NCBI GenBank assembly: GCA_031549605.1
Contig: JAVBPM010000005.1
Coordinates: 2,315 to 66,314 of the forward strand
DNA from: Oscillospiraceae bacterium
Lineage (GTDB): Bacteria; Bacillota; Clostridia; Oscillospirales; UBA929
Reading direction: 5' to 3'
DNA: 64,000 nucleotides
Within the stretch, counting starts at the first letter, position 1. The number at the start of each line of letters is the position of its first letter. The notes under the pieces are model-generated. The model searched no databases, was not told the DNA's origin, and saw only the letters and a list, made by a program, of their open reading frames with translations. Positions 4,381 through 62,663 of this stretch are shown here, in pieces. The translations under genes were made by a program, and so were the position numbers.

Positions 4381-4448
4381 TCCTTATTGCCATTATACCA
4401 CATCGACACCGTGATGCAACGCAAACCGTTCAGGCGGCCTGCGAGAAA

Positions 4449-4755
4449 GAGACCCGCTGCTGTGCAGCGGGTCTCTCAGACTGTCAAAAAAGCGCGCACC
4501 GTAAAACCAGCGTCAGAAAAAGGAGAAACCGGCGACGCAAAGCTGTGTCTTGATTCTCGGCTAACAATTTTGCGGCGCACCGATAAGGTCGCTGCGCCGC
4601 AATGGTTTTACTTGCTGCAGAAACGCTGTCCTAGCGTACCATCGTACGCCGAAGGACAGCGTTTCTTTGCCTGCGCACTTCTTTGTCAGTTTGTCAGCGT
4701 GCCAAAAACAAGTTTTTTGACACGCTGCGAGACACGCTGCTGTGCAGCGGGTCTC
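4449..4755 (+). mobile_element. MITE-like non-coding element, copy 1 (core 4477-4728) with flanking duplicated 27-bp terminator hairpin (4449-4475 and 4729-4755)
   Basis: Core shares its first 33 nt exactly, and about 150 nt nearly exactly, with the copies at 34318-34570 and 59397-59631. Imperfect terminal inverted repeats are CAGACTGTCAAAAAA / TTTTTTGACACGCTG. Confidence 0.7.
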
Positions 4756-4776
4756 TTTCGCGCAAAACGGCTTCAA

Positions 4777-7447: not shown

Positions 7448-9688
7448 TCAAAACCCGTCAAAATCAAAAGTCGATACCTCATCCAGCCATTGCCGCTCCT
7501 GCTCGCTCAGCGGCTGGCTGACAGCATCCTCCACTTGGTCGGCGCTCAACGCACGCAACTGTGCCAGCTGCTGACACACCATGCGCTTCTCGGCGGGTGA
7601 GAAGCCGGCCAACGCCCGGCGCAGGATTACCAACACCGGCACAAAGGCGTCCTCCTCAAGTGCCGCCATATAGTCGTCCAGCGCCTGCCACAGTTTGGAC
7701 AGCGACAGCAGCGCATAGTGATTGCGCGAGACCAGCCCTTCAAACCAGCGCGCACTGTCGGCCGGCAATGTGGCGGACGACAGTCGGTGGGTCATCAACG
7801 GCAGCCACCGTGTCTCGTCCATGCCGTCGCGCTCCAACAGCAGCGCCGCCGCCGTGCCCGCCAGCAGGGCATTAACACTCTGCCCGTCAGCCACGGCGTG
7901 CAACGCCTGACGCCACGCCTCGCCGTCACACAACGACGGGTGCTGGACGGCGGCCTCCTGCACCAGCCACAGCGCCTTTTGCACCGCTGCGGCGGCGTTA
8001 TCGTCACAGCCGCAACTGGTGGTTGCGATGCCCGTCGCGCGAACAAATAGCTGCGACAGCAACGGCTCCAGCGCCGTAGTATCGGTGTGTCGCAGTCCGC
8101 CAAACTTCACCGTCATGCTGAGCGTGTGCAGTGCCTCGGCCACTCCCTCAAGGCTGTCCTGTTGACCGGTAAAGTCGCGCAGTGCTTCAGCAGCGGCGCG
8201 CAGCGCGTCCGGCAGGCCGCACGCGGCCGCCGACTCGACAACAGCTGTAATATCGGCGATACATGTAACGCACTGTAATTGCTCGGCCAGCATCTCGCGT
8301 GCCGCCTTGTCAATCGTCTCGCCGCGCAGTGCGTTTTCGGCCAGCGCGATTTCGGTATCCGGCGTCCACTGCAGCGCATAGACTTCTTTCCACGTCGCAC
8401 CTGTCTGCCGCACCTGCTGACGCTTGCCAAAAGGCACCCCAAGCGCGGCCAAACGGTTGAGAAAGAAAAAACGATTGAGGTCAAGCCAGCGGCTCTGCAG
8501 ACGCTTGACCGCCGTGTTTTCGCGCAAGTCAAGCTGCAGTTCCTTGGCCACCGGCGTGCGGTAGCGCTCCAGTGTCAGCTGACGACACTGCCGCAAAAAA
8601 TCCTGCTGTATGGGCGCGCTCAGATGCTGCGTTGGCAGTGAGCCGGCCGCTGTGCCCACCTCGACGCGGTTGAGCGCCTCGGCTATCGGCGCCAGTTGAC
8701 CCTGTCCCAGGCAGGTAACCGCTGCGGCGCGCAAGTTGTCCAGTGTTGGCAACCGTTGGTTGCGTACCGATGCCAGCGCCAGTGAAAGCCGCGTTGCCTC
8801 CAGCACATCGGCGGCGGATACCGACCGACCCTGTTGCCGCAAGGTCTGTGCCAACTCAGCAAAAAACTGCACCGGAAGCGATTGCAGCGTATCGTCCCGC
8901 AGTGCACTCCACAGCAGTTCAAAGTAGCGAGGACTGTGGATGCCGGCTTCGTAGCCGGTTCGTGACGACAGTCGCAGATAGGTATAGGGCAGCGCCGTCA
9001 GCTGCACCGGCAGTCGCGGCAGGGCGTCGAGCTCGCTATCGCTCATCGGCGGCGCGTCTGTCAGCACCGACGCGTGATAAGCGCCACAGACGACCGCTAT
9101 GTCTTGGTCGGCCACGCCGCTGCGCCGCACGGTCTCGATTTTGCGGCGCATGTGGGCCTCGCGAACTAGGTTTTCCGGCGCGACCGGCTGTAAATCGCGC
9201 AGTCCTTGTCCCAGCTCGTACACCGCCTGCCGGTAGGCGGCGTCACTGCTGTTGTGCTCGAAGGCGGCTTCCCAATAGTCATCAAAGGTTTCATAGCCGT
9301 TGGCCGCTGCCAGTTGCCGGTAGAGATGCTGCACCGACCAGGTCGGCTGCTGGTCGTCTGCTGGTTTTCGTGCCGACAGCGCCAGAAAGACGCCGGTGGG
9401 CAAATCGATAAACTTGGCCTCGGCGCCATTCTCGGACGCCCAGCGCAGAGCGGTTAACTCGGGCGAGTAGTCGGCGTAGGGAAGCAGCAGCGATCGGACC
9501 GGCGGCTGGGCGGCGTAGGCCATGACCGCAACCGGCGGTTGCGTCTCCGCGTCAGTCAGCAGCGCAATCAGCTGTGTGACATCGCTGGGGCCTTCAACCA
9601 GAACGGCCTTGGGGCGCTGCCTGTCCAATGCCGCGCGCAGGTGGAGCGAGGCGGCCGGTGAAAAGTGCCGCACACCAAATACCATCAC
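7448..9688 (-). CDS. large uncharacterised protein, YehM/DUF5682-like
   Basis: 746-aa ORF. Size and position (between a MoxR-type AAA and a vWA gene) match YehM of the E. coli yehLMPQ cluster. The family name is recalled, not searched. Confidence 0.6.
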   Translation of the reverse strand: MMVFGVRHFSPAASLHLRAALDRQRPKAVLVEGPSDVTQLIALLTDAETQPPVAVMAYAAQPPVRSLLLPYADYSPELTALRWASENGAEAKFIDLPTGVFLALSARKPADDQQPTWSVQHLYRQLAAANGYETFDDYWEAAFEHNSSDAAYRQAVYELGQGLRDLQPVAPENLVREAHMRRKIETVRRSGVADQDIAVVCGAYHASVLTDAPPMSDSELDALPRLPVQLTALPYTYLRLSSRTGYEAGIHSPRYFELLWSALRDDTLQSLPVQFFAELAQTLRQQGRSVSAADVLEATRLSLALASVRNQRLPTLDNLRAAAVTCLGQGQLAPIAEALNRVEVGTAAGSLPTQHLSAPIQQDFLRQCRQLTLERYRTPVAKELQLDLRENTAVKRLQSRWLDLNRFFFLNRLAALGVPFGKRQQVRQTGATWKEVYALQWTPDTEIALAENALRGETIDKAAREMLAEQLQCVTCIADITAVVESAAACGLPDALRAAAEALRDFTGQQDSLEGVAEALHTLSMTVKFGGLRHTDTTALEPLLSQLFVRATGIATTSCGCDDNAAAAVQKALWLVQEAAVQHPSLCDGEAWRQALHAVADGQSVNALLAGTAAALLLERDGMDETRWLPLMTHRLSSATLPADSARWFEGLVSRNHYALLSLSKLWQALDDYMAALEEDAFVPVLVILRRALAGFSPAEKRMVCQQLAQLRALSADQVEDAVSQPLSEQERQWLDEVSTFDFDGF

Positions 9689-10808: not shown

Positions 10809-11723
10809 TCAAAAATCCAGCAATGCGTTGTCCAAAAAGGGATACTGGCGCATAAAGCGCGGCAACTTAAGCGCTTGAATACAGGCGTCAAACAGTGCAA
10901 CATCGGCTGCGTGTCGTTCGGCAACCGTTGGTTGCGCCTTCTGCAACGCTTTTAACGCCGCTTTGTCACCCATCTGTACTAAGGCTTTCAGCGCCGCAAC
11001 GCGAACAACCTTATGGTTGTCAAGCAGTAGCGCCTCGAGGGTCGGACGCGCGTCCGGCTCCTTGCGCAAGCGATAGACCGCCTCAGACCGTAGCTCGCTG
11101 CAGCCGCGCTGCAGCACACGCTCAGTAAAACCACGATCCTTTTGGGCCGCCAACAGCCGAAAGGTGAGGCAGTTGCCTCGACGGCTGCTGGTCAACGTAA
11201 ACCGCGACTCAAGCGCGCTGACGGCGTCTTCGCCGATGCCCCGCAACGTCAGCGCGGCGAGTGTGGACACTTCGCTTGACTGACTGTGAAGTGCCATACA
11301 GAGCGAGGGCAACAGGCGCAGGTCGAACAGCTGGTTGCTGTCGAAGGCCCGCTGCAGCAGCTCGGCACGACCGGGTGCCGCTGTTGTCAATGCGGCGTGG
11401 AGGGCTGTCAGGTGGCTGTACGGCAATGTCGTGGTCAGCGCGCTACCTGCTGTACGCGGCGCTTTCGGCGTGGCAACCTGAGGTTGCTTACACTGCGCCA
11501 CCAGCAGCGCCTGTGTCAACGACAACGCGGCCAGCGGCGAGTCGCGCCCCTCGGAACACGCCAATACAAGTTGTTCGAGTCTTTGCAGTGCAGGTGTTTG
11601 GCTTGCCGCAACCTTTAGTTGCGCCGCCAGGCGCACCAACTGGGCATCGTCTTTTGCGGCGGCAGGGCCGGCAATGAGCAGCCGGCGCAGCTGCGTATGC
11701 AGCGCTGTTAACGTATCAGTCAT
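10809..11723 (-). CDS. all-alpha, HEAT/ARM-like repeat protein
   Basis: 304 aa, Ala/Leu-rich helical. The C-terminal DNHKVVRVAALKALVQMGDKAALKALQKA resembles HEAT_2/PBS-lyase repeats. Confidence 0.55.
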   Translation of the reverse strand: MTDTLTALHTQLRRLLIAGPAAAKDDAQLVRLAAQLKVAASQTPALQRLEQLVLACSEGRDSPLAALSLTQALLVAQCKQPQVATPKAPRTAGSALTTTLPYSHLTALHAALTTAAPGRAELLQRAFDSNQLFDLRLLPSLCMALHSQSSEVSTLAALTLRGIGEDAVSALESRFTLTSSRRGNCLTFRLLAAQKDRGFTERVLQRGCSELRSEAVYRLRKEPDARPTLEALLLDNHKVVRVAALKALVQMGDKAALKALQKAQPTVAERHAADVALFDACIQALKLPRFMRQYPFLDNALLDF

Positions 11724-13320: not shown

Positions 13321-14394
13321 ATGGATTTGAAAAACTTTTATGAAAAGCTCGAGTTCGAGCCGACGGGAAAACCTCACAAGGAGGACCGCTGCTGCGGGTA
13401 TGACGGCTGTCACAAAAAGTGCGTCTGCATTTGCGAGGGCCCTAAAGGTGACCGTGGACCCTGCGGCCCCAAGGGTGAGACGGGCGATAAGGGCGAGCGC
13501 GGCCACAGGGGCGAGTGCGGCATGCCGGGTTGCCAGGGCGAGTGTGGACCTAAGGGCGAAAAAGGCGACAGGGGATGTCAAGGCGAGCGCGGCCCTAAGG
13601 GTGAGAAAGGCGAGCAGGGCAGCCGCGGTGAGTGCGGGCCCAAGGGTGAAAAAGGCGAGCAGGGTTGCCACGGCGAGCGCGGTCCTAAGGGTGAAAAAGG
13701 CGAGCAGGGCTGCCGCGGTGAGCGCGGTCCCAAGGGTGAAAAAGGCGAGCAGGGCTGCCACGGCGAGCGCGGGCCCAAGGGTGAAAAAGGCGAACAGGGC
13801 TGCCAGGGCGAACGTGGGCCTAAGGGTGAAAAAGGCGACTGTGGCGCTTGCGGCAGCGGCGAGCTGCTGGAAAACCCCGGCTTTGAGCACTGTCATTACG
13901 ACATTCCCTGCGGGTGGAAGCCCTGCTGCCAAGCCTGTGCCGATGATGCTGTGACAATGGCAACGGCGGACGGTCAGGCCGTTGAACCGGGCGAGGCTTT
14001 CCGACCCCACGCCGAGCGCAACATTGAGTGCGTCAACTGCGAGGGTACGGTTCACAGCGGCTGCCAAGCGGTGCGGCTAGAGGACAACGCCTGTTTATAT
14101 CAGACGGTCTACCGCGTTGAGAAAGACCGCTGCTATGCCTTCTCTTTCTTTGCCAAGGGCCAGGACGCCAAACTGACGGCTGAGGTGCTGTTTGAATCCA
14201 AGTGTAAGGATGAAACGGGCGCTTGCATCGTGGTGCGCGCCGGCGATTTGTGCTGTGACTGCTACGGCTATTACCGCGTCGTAACGTCCAAGGTGCCGTA
14301 CGACGTCGACTGCGTCACCGTGCGCTTTACCGTCGACGGCTGCGACTGCCGCGGCTATGTGCTGCTCGACGACGTTTCACTGACCGGCTGCTAA
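13321..14394 (+). CDS. Cys-rich collagen-like (Gly-X-Y) protein with a C-terminal jelly-roll/CBM-like domain; probable spore-surface or exosporium protein
   Basis: ATG 13321 behind AAGGAGA. About 47 uninterrupted GXY triplets (13438-13860). I count 37 Cys in 357 aa. The C-terminal domain is bracketed by ELLENPGFE ... VLLDDVSL. Confidence 0.85.
   Translation: MDLKNFYEKLEFEPTGKPHKEDRCCGYDGCHKKCVCICEGPKGDRGPCGPKGETGDKGERGHRGECGMPGCQGECGPKGEKGDRGCQGERGPKGEKGEQGSRGECGPKGEKGEQGCHGERGPKGEKGEQGCRGERGPKGEKGEQGCHGERGPKGEKGEQGCQGERGPKGEKGDCGACGSGELLENPGFEHCHYDIPCGWKPCCQACADDAVTMATADGQAVEPGEAFRPHAERNIECVNCEGTVHSGCQAVRLEDNACLYQTVYRVEKDRCYAFSFFAKGQDAKLTAEVLFESKCKDETGACIVVRAGDLCCDCYGYYRVVTSKVPYDVDCVTVRFTVDGCDCRGYVLLDDVSLTGC
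13582..13851 (+). repeat. six tandem 45-bp in-frame repeats encoding GE(R/C)GPKGEKGEQG(C/S)x
   Basis: Consecutive units GERGPKGEKGEQGSR / GECGPKGEKGEQGCH / GERGPKGEKGEQGCR / ...GCH / ...GCQ / GERGPKGEKGDCGAC, read directly from the sequence. Confidence 0.9.
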
Positions 14395-28017: not shown

Positions 28018-28274
28018 GAACTCGCCTCAAATCGTTCAGAATTCCTTGGTTTCGCGTTTTGCAACCGTTGGTTGCGTCCGACGGACACAACCATGCCTTT
28101 GTATAGTTTATCCAGCGCTTGGCATTTCAGACCTCAATGACCGCGTTTTTCCTGCGCTGAGGATAAACAACGCGCCATCGGTGAAACCCCTATGGCGCGC
28201 TGTGGTGGCGGTGCTGCGCTGCTGCCCCGCCGTTGTTATGAACTTTTGACGCCGCTTGTGATTGCCGCGCGTTA

Positions 28275-34291: not shown

Positions 34292-34595
34292 AGGACCGTG
34301 CCGGCCGGCACGGTCCTCAGACTGTCAAAAAAGCGCGCACCGTAAAACCACAGCGCCAGAAAAAAGAGGGAGCGGCGACGTAAGGCGGCGTTTTACTGCT
34401 CGGCTAATGATTTGCGGCGCATCGACAAGGTCGCTGCGCCGCAATGGTTTTACTTGATGCAGAAACGCTGTCCTTGCGTACCATCGTGCGCCGACGGACA
34501 GCGTTTCGTTGCCTGCGCACTTCTTTGTCAGTCTGTCAGCATGCCAAAAAACAAGTTTTTTGACGCGCTGAGGACCGTGCCGCCGGCACGGTCCT
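34292..34595 (+). mobile_element. MITE-like non-coding element, copy 2 (core 34318-34570) with flanking duplicated 25/26-bp terminator hairpin
   Basis: Same ends and internal hairpins as copy 1. Flanked by AGGACCGTGCCGGCCGGCACGGTCCT (34292-34317) and AGGACCGTGCCGCCGGCACGGTCCT (34571-34595). Confidence 0.7.
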
Positions 34596-34618
34596 TTTCG
34601 TTAGGCAACCGTTGGTTG

Positions 34619-36298
34619 CTATTCCATTTCTTCTACGGCGGCAATGTAGTTGTCAATATTCAGCCGCGGTGACAGGATGTAAAACTTGATTTTGGGCTCG
34701 GTGCCGGACGGGCGCACCAGTGTGGTCACGCCGTCGGCCGTTGTGAAGCCCAGCACGTCGGAGCCGGACAGCTCGATGGGCGTTGTGCTGCCGTCAGCGG
34801 CAATGGCCACGCCGGCGAGGTAGTCGGTCTTGGTCACGACGTCGACACCGGCAAACTGCGCCGTGTGCTCGTTGCGCAGCCGTTCCATCAACTGCTGCAT
34901 CTTGGTCAGGCCGTCGAGCCCGGGCATGATTTTGTTGATTGTCTTTTCGGTGTAGCGGCCATACTTGTCATACAGCGCCTCGAGCGCGTCGCTGAGCGTC
35001 ATGCCCTGACCGGCGTACCAATGGGCCATTTCAACAATCAGCAGCGATGCCGTAACGGCGTCCTTGTCGCGGCAAAAATCGCCGGCCATGTAACCGTAGG
35101 ACTCCTCAAAGCCAAGCAACAGTTTGTTTTTATCCTTGTTTTGTTCCATTTTCTCGGCAATGAACTTAAAGCCGGTGAAGGTGCGGAACAAGTCCACGCC
35201 ATGCTCGGCGGCAACGGCATCGACCATTTTGGTGCTGACGACGGTGGTAATGATGCAGGCGTCGGACGCCAGTGTGCCCGTCTCTTTGCGAGCGCGGATG
35301 AGGTAGTCGCAGAGCAGCACGCCGGTTTGGTTGCCGCTCAACGCGATGTATTCGCCGCGGCTGTCATGCACGACGACACCGACACGGTCGGCATCGGGGT
35401 CAGTGCCGATGATGACGTCAACACCCTTGGCCTGCGCCTGCGCTACGGCCAGCGAGAAGGACTCAAGGTTCTCGGGATTGGGGGAGGCGACGGTGGGAAA
35501 GCTGCCATCGGGCACAGCCTGCGCCTCGACCAGCGATACGCCGGTGTAGCCGGCCTCGCGCAGCACCTGCGGCACAAGAGCGTAGCCGGCGCCGTGAAAG
35601 GGCGTGTAGACGATGCTCAGCTGGCGCTGCGGCGGCTGCGGAAAAACACGCTGGGCCAGCGCGCAGTCGAGAAAGGCACGGTCGACGGCGGCGTCTAGCA
35701 CCGTAATAGTGCCATCGGCGACGGCGGCATCGTAATCGGTCGTTTTGGCGCCGCTAAAGATGTCGAGTGCGGCCATTTCGGCGGCGACCTTGTCGGCGTG
35801 GTGCGGCGGCAACTGGGCACCGTCCTGCCAGTAGACCTTGTAACCGTTATATTCGCGGGGATTATGCGAGGCCGTGATGTTAATACCGGCCGTGGCGCCA
35901 AAATAGCGGATAGCAAAAGAAACCTGCGGCGTGGGGCAGAGGTTGGCAAACAGTTTGACGGTAATGCCGCTGGCGGCCAGCACACAGGCGGCTTCGCGCG
36001 CGAAGAGCTGGCTGTTTTCGCGGCAGTCGTATCCGATAATGACGCCGGCGTCGCAGGCTTGTCGACCCTCGGCGACGATGAGGTTGGCCAGCCCCTGTGT
36101 GGCTTGGCGCACGACATAGCTGTTCATGCGGTGCAGTCCGGGGCCCATAACACCGCGCAGGCCGGCCGTGCCGAAGGACAGCGGCGCGTAAAAACGGGCC
36201 TTGATTTCACCCTCGTCAAGCTGGCGCAGCTCCTCGCGCTCGGCCTCGGTGATGACAGGGCTGTTGAGCCACTGTTGGTATGCTTCTTGTCCGATCAT
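34619..36298 (-). CDS. pgcA: phosphoglucomutase / phosphomannomutase family (PgcA-like)
   Basis: Active-site TASHNPREYNGYK. 559 aa. Confidence 0.9.
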   Translation of the reverse strand: MIGQEAYQQWLNSPVITEAEREELRQLDEGEIKARFYAPLSFGTAGLRGVMGPGLHRMNSYVVRQATQGLANLIVAEGRQACDAGVIIGYDCRENSQLFAREAACVLAASGITVKLFANLCPTPQVSFAIRYFGATAGINITASHNPREYNGYKVYWQDGAQLPPHHADKVAAEMAALDIFSGAKTTDYDAAVADGTITVLDAAVDRAFLDCALAQRVFPQPPQRQLSIVYTPFHGAGYALVPQVLREAGYTGVSLVEAQAVPDGSFPTVASPNPENLESFSLAVAQAQAKGVDVIIGTDPDADRVGVVVHDSRGEYIALSGNQTGVLLCDYLIRARKETGTLASDACIITTVVSTKMVDAVAAEHGVDLFRTFTGFKFIAEKMEQNKDKNKLLLGFEESYGYMAGDFCRDKDAVTASLLIVEMAHWYAGQGMTLSDALEALYDKYGRYTEKTINKIMPGLDGLTKMQQLMERLRNEHTAQFAGVDVVTKTDYLAGVAIAADGSTTPIELSGSDVLGFTTADGVTTLVRPSGTEPKIKFYILSPRLNIDNYIAAVEEME

Positions 36299-52271: not shown

Positions 52272-53960
52272 ATGAAATTTTCCGAGATCCCCTATCAGCG
52301 CCTGACCGTTGAGCAGGTCGCGCCTCAGGTCGAGCAACTCATTGCCGCACTAGATGCCGCAACCAACGGTTGCGAGGCCTGCGAGGTCTACGAGCGCTAT
52401 AATGCGCTGGTTGTGCAGGTTGAGTCGACGGTGGCGCTGGTGTACATCCGCAACCACCTCGACACCACTGACGCGCTGTACGCCGCCGAGCAGGACTATT
52501 ATGACGAGCAGATTCCACGCCTGACCGAGCTGCTGCACGGCTTTGCCACCAAGCTGATGCTAACGCCGCACCTCAAGGCGTTGGAGGACAAGTACGGCGA
52601 GCAGGCCTTCCGCCGGACGGCCATTGAGCTGCGCACCTTCTCGCCCGCTATTCTGGAGGATATGCAAGAGGAGAACCGGCTGGAGACGCAGTACACCAAG
52701 CTGCTGGCCAGCGCTCAGATTGACTTTGACGGCGGCGTTTACACACTGGCACAACTGGCCGCCTTCCACGTCCACGCCGACCGCGACGTGCGCAAGCGCT
52801 CGATGGAGACAAAGGCGGCGTGGTTTGAGAGCCACAAGGCGGAATTTGACGAGCTGTATGACAAGCTGGTGGCGCTGCGCACGCAGATGGGCCGCAAAAT
52901 GGGCTATGACAACTATCTGCCGCTGGGCTACGACCGCCGTGCCCGCGACTGCTACGGCCCCGCCGAGGTTGCCAAGTTCCGTGCCGCTGTGGTGGAGCAC
53001 ATTGTACCGGTGGCGCACCGTCTCAAGCGCGAGCAGGCGGCGCGTATTGGCGCTGACGCGCTGACGTTGTTCGACGACGGTTTTCTGTACAAGAGCGGCA
53101 ACGCCGCACCCATTGGCACGCCGGAGGAGATTTTTGCCAACGGCAAGAAGATGTACCACGAGCTGAGCGACGAAACCGGCCGCTTTATCGACGATATGCT
53201 GGATATGGACGCCTTTGACGTGCTGGCGCGTCAAAACAAGGCGGGCGGCGGCTTCTGCTATTCCATGTCGGCCTACAACCTGCCCTTTATCTTCGCCAAT
53301 TTCAACGGCACGTCCGACGACATTGAAACGCTGACACACGAGGCGGGTCACGCCTTTGCCGCCTGGGAGGCTTACAAATACCCAGCCGAGGCGCAGCGCA
53401 ACCCCACCTATGACGCCGCCGAGACACACTCGATGTCGATGGAGTTTTTGACCTGGCCGTGGATGGAGCTGTTCTACGGCGGTCAGACCGACAAGTTTAA
53501 GCAGTCGCATCTGGCGGGTGCGTTGACCTTCCTGCCGTATGGCGTCATGGTCGACCATTTTCAGCACATCGTGTATGAAAATCCGTCGCTGTCGCCGCAG
53601 CAGCGTTGCGACGAATGGAAGAAGCTGGAGGCCATTTACCGCCCGTGGCTTGACTACGATATGCCCTTCTACGGCGAGGGACGCCGCTGGATGGGGCAGG
53701 GTCACATCTACACCGACCCGCTTTACTACATTGACTACTGCTTTGCACAGGCCAATGCGCTGAGCGTGTGGGCGCTGGCGCAGCAGGATGCCGCCGACGC
53801 CTGGCGACGCTACTACGGCTTTGTCTCGCTGGCCGGCACCAAGAACTTTGTCGACCTCAACCACGCGGCGGGCCTGGGCGACCCCTTCAGCGCCGAGACG
53901 CTCAAGCGTGTGGCCACTGAGGCACTGGCGTGGCTGGACGAACAGCCCAAACTCGATTAA
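52272..53960 (+). CDS. pepF: M3B family oligoendopeptidase F
   Basis: 562 aa. Zinc motif HEAGHAF. Confidence 0.85.
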   Translation: MKFSEIPYQRLTVEQVAPQVEQLIAALDAATNGCEACEVYERYNALVVQVESTVALVYIRNHLDTTDALYAAEQDYYDEQIPRLTELLHGFATKLMLTPHLKALEDKYGEQAFRRTAIELRTFSPAILEDMQEENRLETQYTKLLASAQIDFDGGVYTLAQLAAFHVHADRDVRKRSMETKAAWFESHKAEFDELYDKLVALRTQMGRKMGYDNYLPLGYDRRARDCYGPAEVAKFRAAVVEHIVPVAHRLKREQAARIGADALTLFDDGFLYKSGNAAPIGTPEEIFANGKKMYHELSDETGRFIDDMLDMDAFDVLARQNKAGGGFCYSMSAYNLPFIFANFNGTSDDIETLTHEAGHAFAAWEAYKYPAEAQRNPTYDAAETHSMSMEFLTWPWMELFYGGQTDKFKQSHLAGALTFLPYGVMVDHFQHIVYENPSLSPQQRCDEWKKLEAIYRPWLDYDMPFYGEGRRWMGQGHIYTDPLYYIDYCFAQANALSVWALAQQDAADAWRRYYGFVSLAGTKNFVDLNHAAGLGDPFSAETLKRVATEALAWLDEQPKLD

Positions 53961-59398: not shown

Positions 59399-59661
59399 CT
59401 TGACTTGGCACGCTGCAGACTGACAAAGACGTGCGCAGGCAAAGAAACGCTGTCCGTCGGCGTAGGATGGTACGCTAGGACAGCGTTTTTGCAGCAAGTA
59501 AAACCATTGCGGCGCAACGACCTTGTCGATGCGCCGCAAATCATTACCCGGGTATCAATACGCAGCCTCACGCCGCCGTGTCCTCTCTTTCCTGATACTG
59601 GTTTTACGGTGCGCGCTTTTTTGACAGTCTGCAAAGGACGCAGGGCAAGCCTGCGTCCTTT
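59397..59661 (-). mobile_element. MITE-like non-coding element, copy 3 (core 59397-59631, inverted) plus one adjoining terminator hairpin (59633-59661)
   Basis: The reverse complement starts with the same 33 nt as copies 1 and 2 and shares the conserved about 150-nt hairpin region. It lacks the TTTTTTGAC end and the second hairpin copy. Its truncated end abuts the htrA stop codon. Confidence 0.65.
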
Positions 59662-59675
59662 TGTTCTATCAATTA

Positions 59676-62625: not shown

Positions 62626-62663
62626 AAAAGCAATGCCGCAACCAATGGTTGCGGCATTGCGCT
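62626..62663 (-). terminator. terminator hairpin downstream of the minD-like gene (possibly bidirectional)
   Basis: GCAATGCCGCAACCAATGGTTGCGGCATTGC. On the minus strand it is followed by CTTTTTGC. The apex is a copy of the iterated palindrome. Confidence 0.6.

Follow-up and report, generated by a model that had tools for sequence, protein, structure and literature searches.

A non-coding element that lies between two converging genes of an Oscillospiraceae bacterium is framed by two almost identical hairpins, and this arrangement raises the question of whether an entire hairpin can be duplicated as the target site of a transposon and, if so, which transposase could be responsible. The locus is contained in a 64,000-nt stretch of DNA, hereafter called the window, in which an earlier note had described two copies of the element, bracketed by duplicated hairpins that differ between the two loci. 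Both pairs of hairpins were found at these loci as it had described them, and Table 1 lists their positions together with those of a third, decayed copy. The cytidine-deaminase-like and phosphoglucomutase-type genes converge on copy 2, whose right hairpin is followed by TTTCG and then by the 3′ end of the phosphoglucomutase-type gene on the minus strand. The hairpin sequence of copy 1 differs from that of copy 2. Two other kinds of repeat were observed in the window. The short palindromic motif GCAACCnnnGGTTGC recurs many times (at 34598-34619, 8742-8763, 10914-10935, 28054-28075, 52354-52374 and 62633-62653, among other sites), one copy being located directly 3′ of the right hairpin of copy 2, and at least seven tandem 45-bp units at 13447-13844 probably constitute a coding repeat.

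Table 1. Copies of the miniature transposon and their target hairpins in the 64,000-nt window.
Feature	Position	Strand	Remarks
Copy 1, left target hairpin	4448..4476	.	
Copy 1, miniature transposon	4477..4727	+	251 bp; 89% identity to copy 2
Copy 1, right target hairpin	4728..4756	.	27/29 identical to left hairpin
Copy 2, left target hairpin AGGACCGTGCCGGCCGGCACGGTCCT	34292..34317	.	9 nt past stop of cytidine-deaminase-like gene
Copy 2, miniature transposon	34318..34570	+	non-coding; 253 bp here (family 251 bp)
Copy 2, left terminal inverted repeat CAGACTGTCAAAAAAG	34318..34333	+	identical to left termini of six full-length IS1182-family ISs
Copy 2, internal hairpin 1, TGCGGCGCA...TGCGCCGCA	34413..34443	+	self-match on opposite strand; kept in family consensus
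Copy 2, internal hairpin 2, GAAACGCTGTCC...GGACAGCGTTTC	34462..34507	+	kept in family consensus
Copy 2, internal right-end-type repeat CTTCTTTGTCAGTCTG (reverse complement CAGACTGACAAAGAAG)	34520..34535	+	end of 216-bp core unit
Copy 2, terminal 34-bp palindrome CAGCATGCCAAAAAAC-AAG-TTTTTTGACGCGCTG	34537..34570	+	second left-end-type repeat and its inverted copy
Copy 2, right target hairpin AGGACCGTGCCGCCGGCACGGTCCT	34571..34595	.	one loop G fewer
Copy 3, miniature transposon	59405..59631	-	decayed; right terminus and second hairpin deleted
Copy 3, sole remaining target hairpin	59632..59662	.	adjoins CAGACTG end

The whole assembly (1.95 Mb in 88 contigs, 58.5% G+C, 96.9% complete) was searched for the element by BLAST, which yielded 51 matches longer than 150 bp, including 40 complete copies of 247-253 bp with both termini. 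The expectation that each genomic copy would be flanked by its own duplicated hairpin was borne out in 39 of the 40 complete copies, where a locus-specific duplication of 19-39 bp (median 29) abuts both ends. The fortieth is the inner one of two copies that form a tandem dimer on contig C83, and here the duplication is found at the outer edges of the dimer. True pairs of left and right flanks gave local alignment scores of 16-39; when left flanks were aligned with the right flanks of other copies, the scores averaged 6.8 and did not exceed 19. The hairpin duplication is real, general, and far above chance.

Each duplicated unit folds into a GC-rich stem-loop, and its sequence is unlike at every locus. 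The insertion sites are located 30-50 bp downstream of stop codons, and at 35 of the 36 classifiable loci at least one gene has its 3′ end facing the site (20 sites between convergent genes, 15 between tandem genes, and one doubtful). The duplicated units are intrinsic-terminator hairpins. The earlier proposal that it is the whole terminator hairpin that becomes duplicated was thus upheld, since the unit folds as a hairpin and its length follows that of the hairpin; the duplications are true, locus-specific target-site duplications of the entire hairpin, which obey no fixed ruler. The orientation of the element was biased neither with respect to tandem genes (7 versus 8) nor with respect to local GC skew (20 versus 20).

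Whether the hairpins are duplicated target DNA, or instead belong to the element or were already present in tandem before it inserted between them, was judged from several observations. The latter explanation, which involves no target duplication, is a formal possibility, and no empty site of the same species was recovered: a metagenome scan with the 32-nt left end and a scan of species-representative genomes with the 21-nt left end each gave 0 exact matches, and the protein of the flanking deaminase-like gene had no identical entry on record. For the full-length ISs of other species described below, look-ups of flanking proteins gave nothing or only filled sites. We nevertheless find this explanation barely credible. 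From locus to locus the element is constant but the hairpins are not, and recently inserted full-length ISs have flanking hairpins that are 100% identical. A genome scan for stably folding direct repeats, 18 bp or longer and separated by no more than 2.5 kb, detected no terminator-type hairpin repeats without the element between them, except for one unrelated cassette. The sole same-genus relative (G001, about 66% DNA identity) has diverged too far for the loci to be compared one by one; one orthologous terminator was readable in it, and a single hairpin is present there, 3′ of the phosphoglucomutase-type ortholog. Two findings that the earlier note had regarded as fatal to its claim, hairpins that are part of the element consensus and tandem hairpins at the orthologous sites of relatives, were therefore not encountered, the second at the one readable site. 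Given the lack of element-less tandem terminator hairpins and the one hairpin behind the sister ortholog, we conclude that the hairpins are target DNA duplicated on insertion, being neither part of the element nor a pre-existing tandem.

The exceptional cassette is located outside the window, at C73:450-1070. Its 555 bp contain two small ORFs of the helix-turn-helix type, divergently oriented, and it is bordered on both sides by a perfect 33-bp direct repeat, CAAATAGCAAAAGACACGCCGAAGCGTGTCTTT, that includes a stop codon and a terminator hairpin. It has no CAGnnTGTC termini or terminal repeats, and thus represents a different kind of insertion or duplication.

The consensus of the element is 251 bp long, and pairwise identities among its copies are 80-96%, with a mean of 88%. 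A 216-bp core begins with CAGACTGTCAAAAAAG and ends with CTTCTTTGTCAGTCTG; 3′ of it come one T and a 34-bp palindrome, which reads CAGCGTGCCAAAAAAC-AAG-TTTTTTGACACGCTG in the consensus and whose outer half is the working right terminus. The terminal inverted repeats, CAGACTGTCAAAAAA and CAGCGTGTCAAAAAA, are alike at 13 of 15 positions, and internal hairpins are conserved at consensus positions 95-125 and 143-188. The element contains no ORF longer than 86 aa, only short and unconserved ones. An RNA gene was ruled out, as the Rfam search of the element gave no match. The element is short, non-coding, and present in many copies, with terminal inverted repeats and a flanking target-site duplication, as is typical of MITEs. 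It was absent from the 40 relatives searched, and is a lineage-restricted, non-autonomous MITE. About 10 copies are truncated, always at the right end, one of them through a GTGCC microhomology with its own flanking hairpin. The right end is composite (34520-34570 in the window), with an internal right-end-type repeat, one T, and a palindrome of two left-end-type repeats. The tandem dimer at C83:9330-9795 fits slippage between these two left-end repeats.

To which family does the MITE belong? According to the earlier note, no described family fits. This claim has to be abandoned, since the termini are identical to those of IS1182-family ISs, a family published as targeting hairpins or palindromes; furthermore, the duplication of a whole stem-loop has been drawn as pathway b in Fig. 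13 of PMC5678879, and IS1630, of the IS30 family, has been published as duplicating inverted repeats. Over its first 16-17 nt the MITE is identical to the exact left termini of six full-length ISs of the IS1182 family from the same bacterial order, the transposases of which have 57-66% identity to the clade alignment (A1). These full-length ISs are 1.5-1.6 kb long, with the left end CAGnCTGTCrAAAAAG and the right end CAGnCTGTCrAAGAAC. The MITE retains their dimorphism of a left-end AAAAAAG and a right-end AAAGAA, and the repeat at the end of its core, CAGACTGACAAAGAAG, is of the 'AAAGAA' type found at the right ends of the full-length ISs. The clade transposases, encoded in relatives from the same family and order, are 470-500 aa long and score 379-450 bits against the IS1182 model NF033551 (cut-off 270); the two clade representatives tested contain DUF772, DDE_Tnp_1, and DDE_Tnp_1_6.

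The search for a cognate transposase, which the earlier note had suggested, gave a divided answer. In the element's own assembly (96.9% complete) there was no match to NF033551 or to clade alignment A1, whereas the longer, end-matching elements in relatives encode a transposase of the IS1182 type. Beyond the 16-17-nt terminal repeat the MITE had no similarity to the sampled ISs, and its direct parent was not found among them. An undescribed transposon family with its own structure-directed recombinase would account for both the lack of a transposase match in the genome and the restriction of the likeness to known ISs to 16-17 terminal nucleotides. We consider such a family very improbable, however, as in six independent IS1182-family ISs the common nucleotides form the very termini, the MITE bears the right-end variant of these ISs too, and the full-length ISs yield the same whole-hairpin duplications. 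Mobilization by an IS30-family transposase of the IS1630 type is even harder to credit. Its outcome would be the same, in that duplications of variable inverted repeats, 19-26 bp long, appear in Fig. 1 of PMC2853133 and such duplication is named in a title cited as ref. 23 of PMC7648426, but the IS30 model NF033563 found no match in this genome, no IS30-family elements with CAGnnTGTCAAAAAA termini were seen, and the ends of the MITE match IS1182-family ISs.

Several other kinds of element were considered and rejected. IS200/IS605 elements have sub-terminal hairpins of their own, no terminal inverted repeats, no target duplication, and strand-biased insertion; membership in this family or among its palindrome-associated derivatives does not agree with locus-specific hairpins, inverted repeats, duplications, and the lack of strand bias. 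Site-specific recombination of the integron or att type was rejected because the element carries no copy of the target, and a Cas1-type integrase because the ends are of the IS1182 type.

Full-length ISs of the clade were then inspected for the same kind of flanks. In two samples together, 33 of them are flanked by perfect whole-hairpin duplications of 18-38 bp. In the first sample, from the same order, flanks were readable for 15 ISs, and in 10 of these a perfect hairpin duplication of 18-34 bp directly adjoins the element. The second sample comprised 80 loci from named genomes of Oscillospiraceae, Ruminococcaceae, Acutalibacteraceae, Butyricicoccus, Christensenellaceae, and others; duplications of 20-38 bp were present in 23 of the 49 readable ISs, as in Oscillibacter valericigenes Sjm18-20, Chakrabartyella piscis BP5G, and Butyricicoccus porcorum BB10. 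The remaining full-length ISs, which make up about half in draft genomes, mostly have unlike hairpins at their two ends. Among the ISs of the second sample, duplications were present in only 1 of 16 where the contig was shorter than 5 kb, but in 22 of 33 where it reached 5 kb or more and in 9 of 10 where it reached 1 Mb or more. Gemmiger sp. An87 has one mismatched copy, whose left hairpin recurs as a right flank at a different contig end and whose right hairpin recurs as a left flank at a third; partners across contig ends were found for 6 of 8 left flanks in this genome (loci L098/L163, L169, and L180). A second mode of insertion, between two different hairpins, was rejected on these grounds. 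The concentration of mismatches on short contigs and the cross-contig pairing in An87 indicate that the mismatched flanks were swapped by assembly or by recombination.

Contigs with unlike hairpins, 15 of which are shorter than 5 kb among L066-L145, are thus either chimeric or carry recombined copies, and they call for caution when target duplications are read from draft genomes. A different situation was observed once, in the same-genus genome (G001:C9, about 540-2030; L039), where an IS1182-family IS of another subgroup, with the termini GGAGCTGTTGACAAAC, appears to be seated in the loop of a hairpin (AAGGGGT ... ACCCCTT on each side) that is not duplicated. This single case would match the 'loop' pathway drawn in Fig. 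13 of PMC5678879.

The geometry of the cuts was determined from 39 perfect duplications (31 of ISs and 8 of MITEs) placed in reconstructed empty sites. The duplicated segment is centred exactly on the axis of the palindrome in 30 of the 39 and lies no more than 2 nt off it in 37. Its edges vary in position, the outermost lying 2 nt beyond the stem and the innermost a few A:T pairs within the maximal stem. The first base is A in 33 of the 39 duplications, and by symmetry the last base tends to be T. Since the cuts are often displaced by a few A:T pairs into the maximal stem and so many duplications begin with A, some sequence preference may act besides structure. The symmetry about the axis, together with a length that tracks the hairpin, agrees with strand transfer at both outer feet of the palindrome, and the absence of orientation bias relative to genes and GC skew fits a symmetric, double-stranded target. 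The earlier suggestion of staggered cuts at both feet of the hairpin remains the best mechanism in view of the symmetry in 30 of 39 cases, except that the cut is not always made at the foot of the maximal stem.

On the basis of these observations, we infer a pathway in which the MITE is mobilized in trans. The DDE transposase of an IS1182-type IS would bind the CAGnnTGTCaAAAAA termini and would select a palindrome, which in practice would be the hairpin of an intrinsic terminator downstream of a gene. Both 3′ ends of the element would then be joined to both DNA strands at mirror-image positions, namely the outer (5′) feet of the palindrome. This would occur most simply on an extruded cruciform, where the two attacked positions sit side by side; a cruciform is proposed because only extrusion of the palindrome brings the two 5′-foot positions next to each other. 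When the two single-stranded gaps are repaired, the entire hairpin would be copied to both sides of the element, which would explain why duplication and hairpin have the same length (19-39 bp). In our judgement, the MITE very probably derives from the clade of IS1182-family ISs that is common in Oscillospirales-type Clostridia, and was moved by strand transfer at the hairpin feet.

The same family could produce the same outcome on a target other than a cruciform, either on single-stranded hairpins at the replication fork or on a duplex palindrome with a flexible stagger. Such a target would agree with cuts that deviate from the foot of the maximal stem, often leaving out the outer 2-5 A:T pairs, and with the 33 of 39 duplications starting with A, a hint that sequence is read. 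Single-strand transposons, on the other hand, have an orientation bias that is not seen here with either GC skew (20 versus 20) or gene direction, an argument that is weak for a symmetric target, and the duplex version would need a stagger of 18-39 bp, which is hard to achieve with one active-site geometry. We therefore regard a non-cruciform target as rather unlikely and retain the cruciform in the proposed pathway.

The history of the family in this genome was examined by comparing the two hairpin copies at the 39 MITE loci (e.g., C55:43811-44058 and window 4448-4756). Overall identity between the two copies of a locus is 95.9%, with a perfect match in 14 of the 39 pairs. Differences between left and right hairpins were found at 25 of 195 unpaired positions and 29 of 834 paired positions, making them 3.7 times denser in the unpaired parts (binomial p = 4e-6). 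In four cases both partners of a base pair have changed, and at least one of these is clearly compensatory. At 35 of 39 loci both hairpin copies fold at -8 kcal/mol or better. The bias of the differences toward loops and the compensatory changes suggest that both hairpin copies are under selection as stem-loops. The loops have diverged by about 13%, which is comparable to the 12% divergence between copies of the element. Taken together, the data point to a single ancient burst, after which the copies decayed while selection preserved the stems of both hairpins. In this genome the family looks old and inactive, or extinct, since its copies are divergent and often truncated and no transposase turned up.

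Since both hairpin copies can still fold, each neighbouring gene keeps a 3′ stem-loop. The duplication itself includes only 0-5 trailing T residues, and for this reason the gene-proximal hairpin copy probably terminates transcription poorly, so that transcripts may run through the element. A wider picture can be put forward tentatively, as slightly less likely than not: a large, uncharacterized IS1182 clade and its MITEs in gut and anaerobic Clostridia may insert by 5′-foot strand transfer on an extruded terminator cruciform, in a mirror image of the deletion made by IS1272. As the hairpin would be rebuilt beside both genes, the elements would occupy a near-neutral safe harbour and would lengthen 3′ untranslated regions across the genome. 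Both stems are kept while the loops drift, a hint that the two hairpin copies remain functional.

These insertions (39 of the MITE and 33 of full-length ISs, with 39 perfect duplications) provide a large and clean natural data set on how one transposase family picks structure over sequence. Apparently one family can either delete a hairpin, as IS1272 does, or duplicate it, as in the clade studied here, and the two outcomes would differ only in which foot of the stem is attacked. Such elements occupy terminators throughout the genomes of uncultured Clostridia. MITE-finding software that expects duplications of 2-14 bp will miss elements that duplicate hairpins, and the full-length ISs of the clade break or scramble short-read assemblies.

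ISfinder lists direct repeats of 0-60 bp for IS1182. Our literature search returned no paper on whole-hairpin duplication by IS1182-family elements or their MITEs. The best-studied member of the IS1182 family is IS1272 of staphylococci, which, with its composite TnSha1, targets hairpins, often proven terminators, in both orientations and without sequence specificity, removing part or all of the stem-loop and leaving no duplication (PMC4923244, PMC5678879). For other palindrome-targeting members of the family, both papers refer to Siguier et al. 2015. Wan et al. (2017) assigned to IS1272 an attack at the 3′ foot with loss of the stem-loop, and drew the duplication of a whole stem-loop through 5′-foot attack as a possible pathway (PMC5678879). 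IS1272 thus shares with our MITE the targeting of hairpins and the transposase family, through the full-length ISs whose ends the MITE carries. It also has variants with extra copies of the end repeat, comparable to the right end of the MITE; the composite right end and the dimer recall the end-duplicated 'IS1272L' forms (PMC5678879). The two differ in that IS1272, compared here by its published description, deletes the hairpin, whereas the whole stem-loop is duplicated at the sites of the MITE, which is a 251-bp non-coding derivative without a transposase.

In its outcome, the MITE resembles IS1630 of Mycoplasma fermentans and ISMhom-1, in which a whole inverted repeat is duplicated. IS1630 (Calcutt, Lavrrar and Wise 1999, J Bacteriol 181:7597) is represented in our sources by the title on inverted-repeat duplication in ref. 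23 of PMC7648426 and by the 19-26-bp duplications of Fig. 1 of PMC2853133, and as far as these sources extend it is the only published case of the duplication of a whole inverted repeat. According to the same sources, IS1630 and ISMhom-1 are autonomous and have an IS30-family transposase, whereas the ends of the MITE match those of IS1182-family ISs. With ordinary bacterial MITEs the element has in common that it is short, non-coding, and multi-copy, with terminal inverted repeats and a borrowed transposase. IS1182 MITEs derived from ISMac2 in Methanosarcina acetivorans have duplications of 0-4 bp (PMC3852290), in contrast to the 19-39 bp set by the hairpin here. An analogy can also be seen with an unrelated system. 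When Cas1-Cas2 integrates a CRISPR spacer, staggered strand transfers flank a repeat that is often palindromic, and gap repair duplicates this repeat; the enzyme is unrelated, the repeat length is fixed, and there is neither homology nor any common sequence feature. Therefore, with the IS1630 precedent of 1999 and the published sketch for IS1182, the hairpin duplication described here is a clean further example within a known family and involves no new principle.
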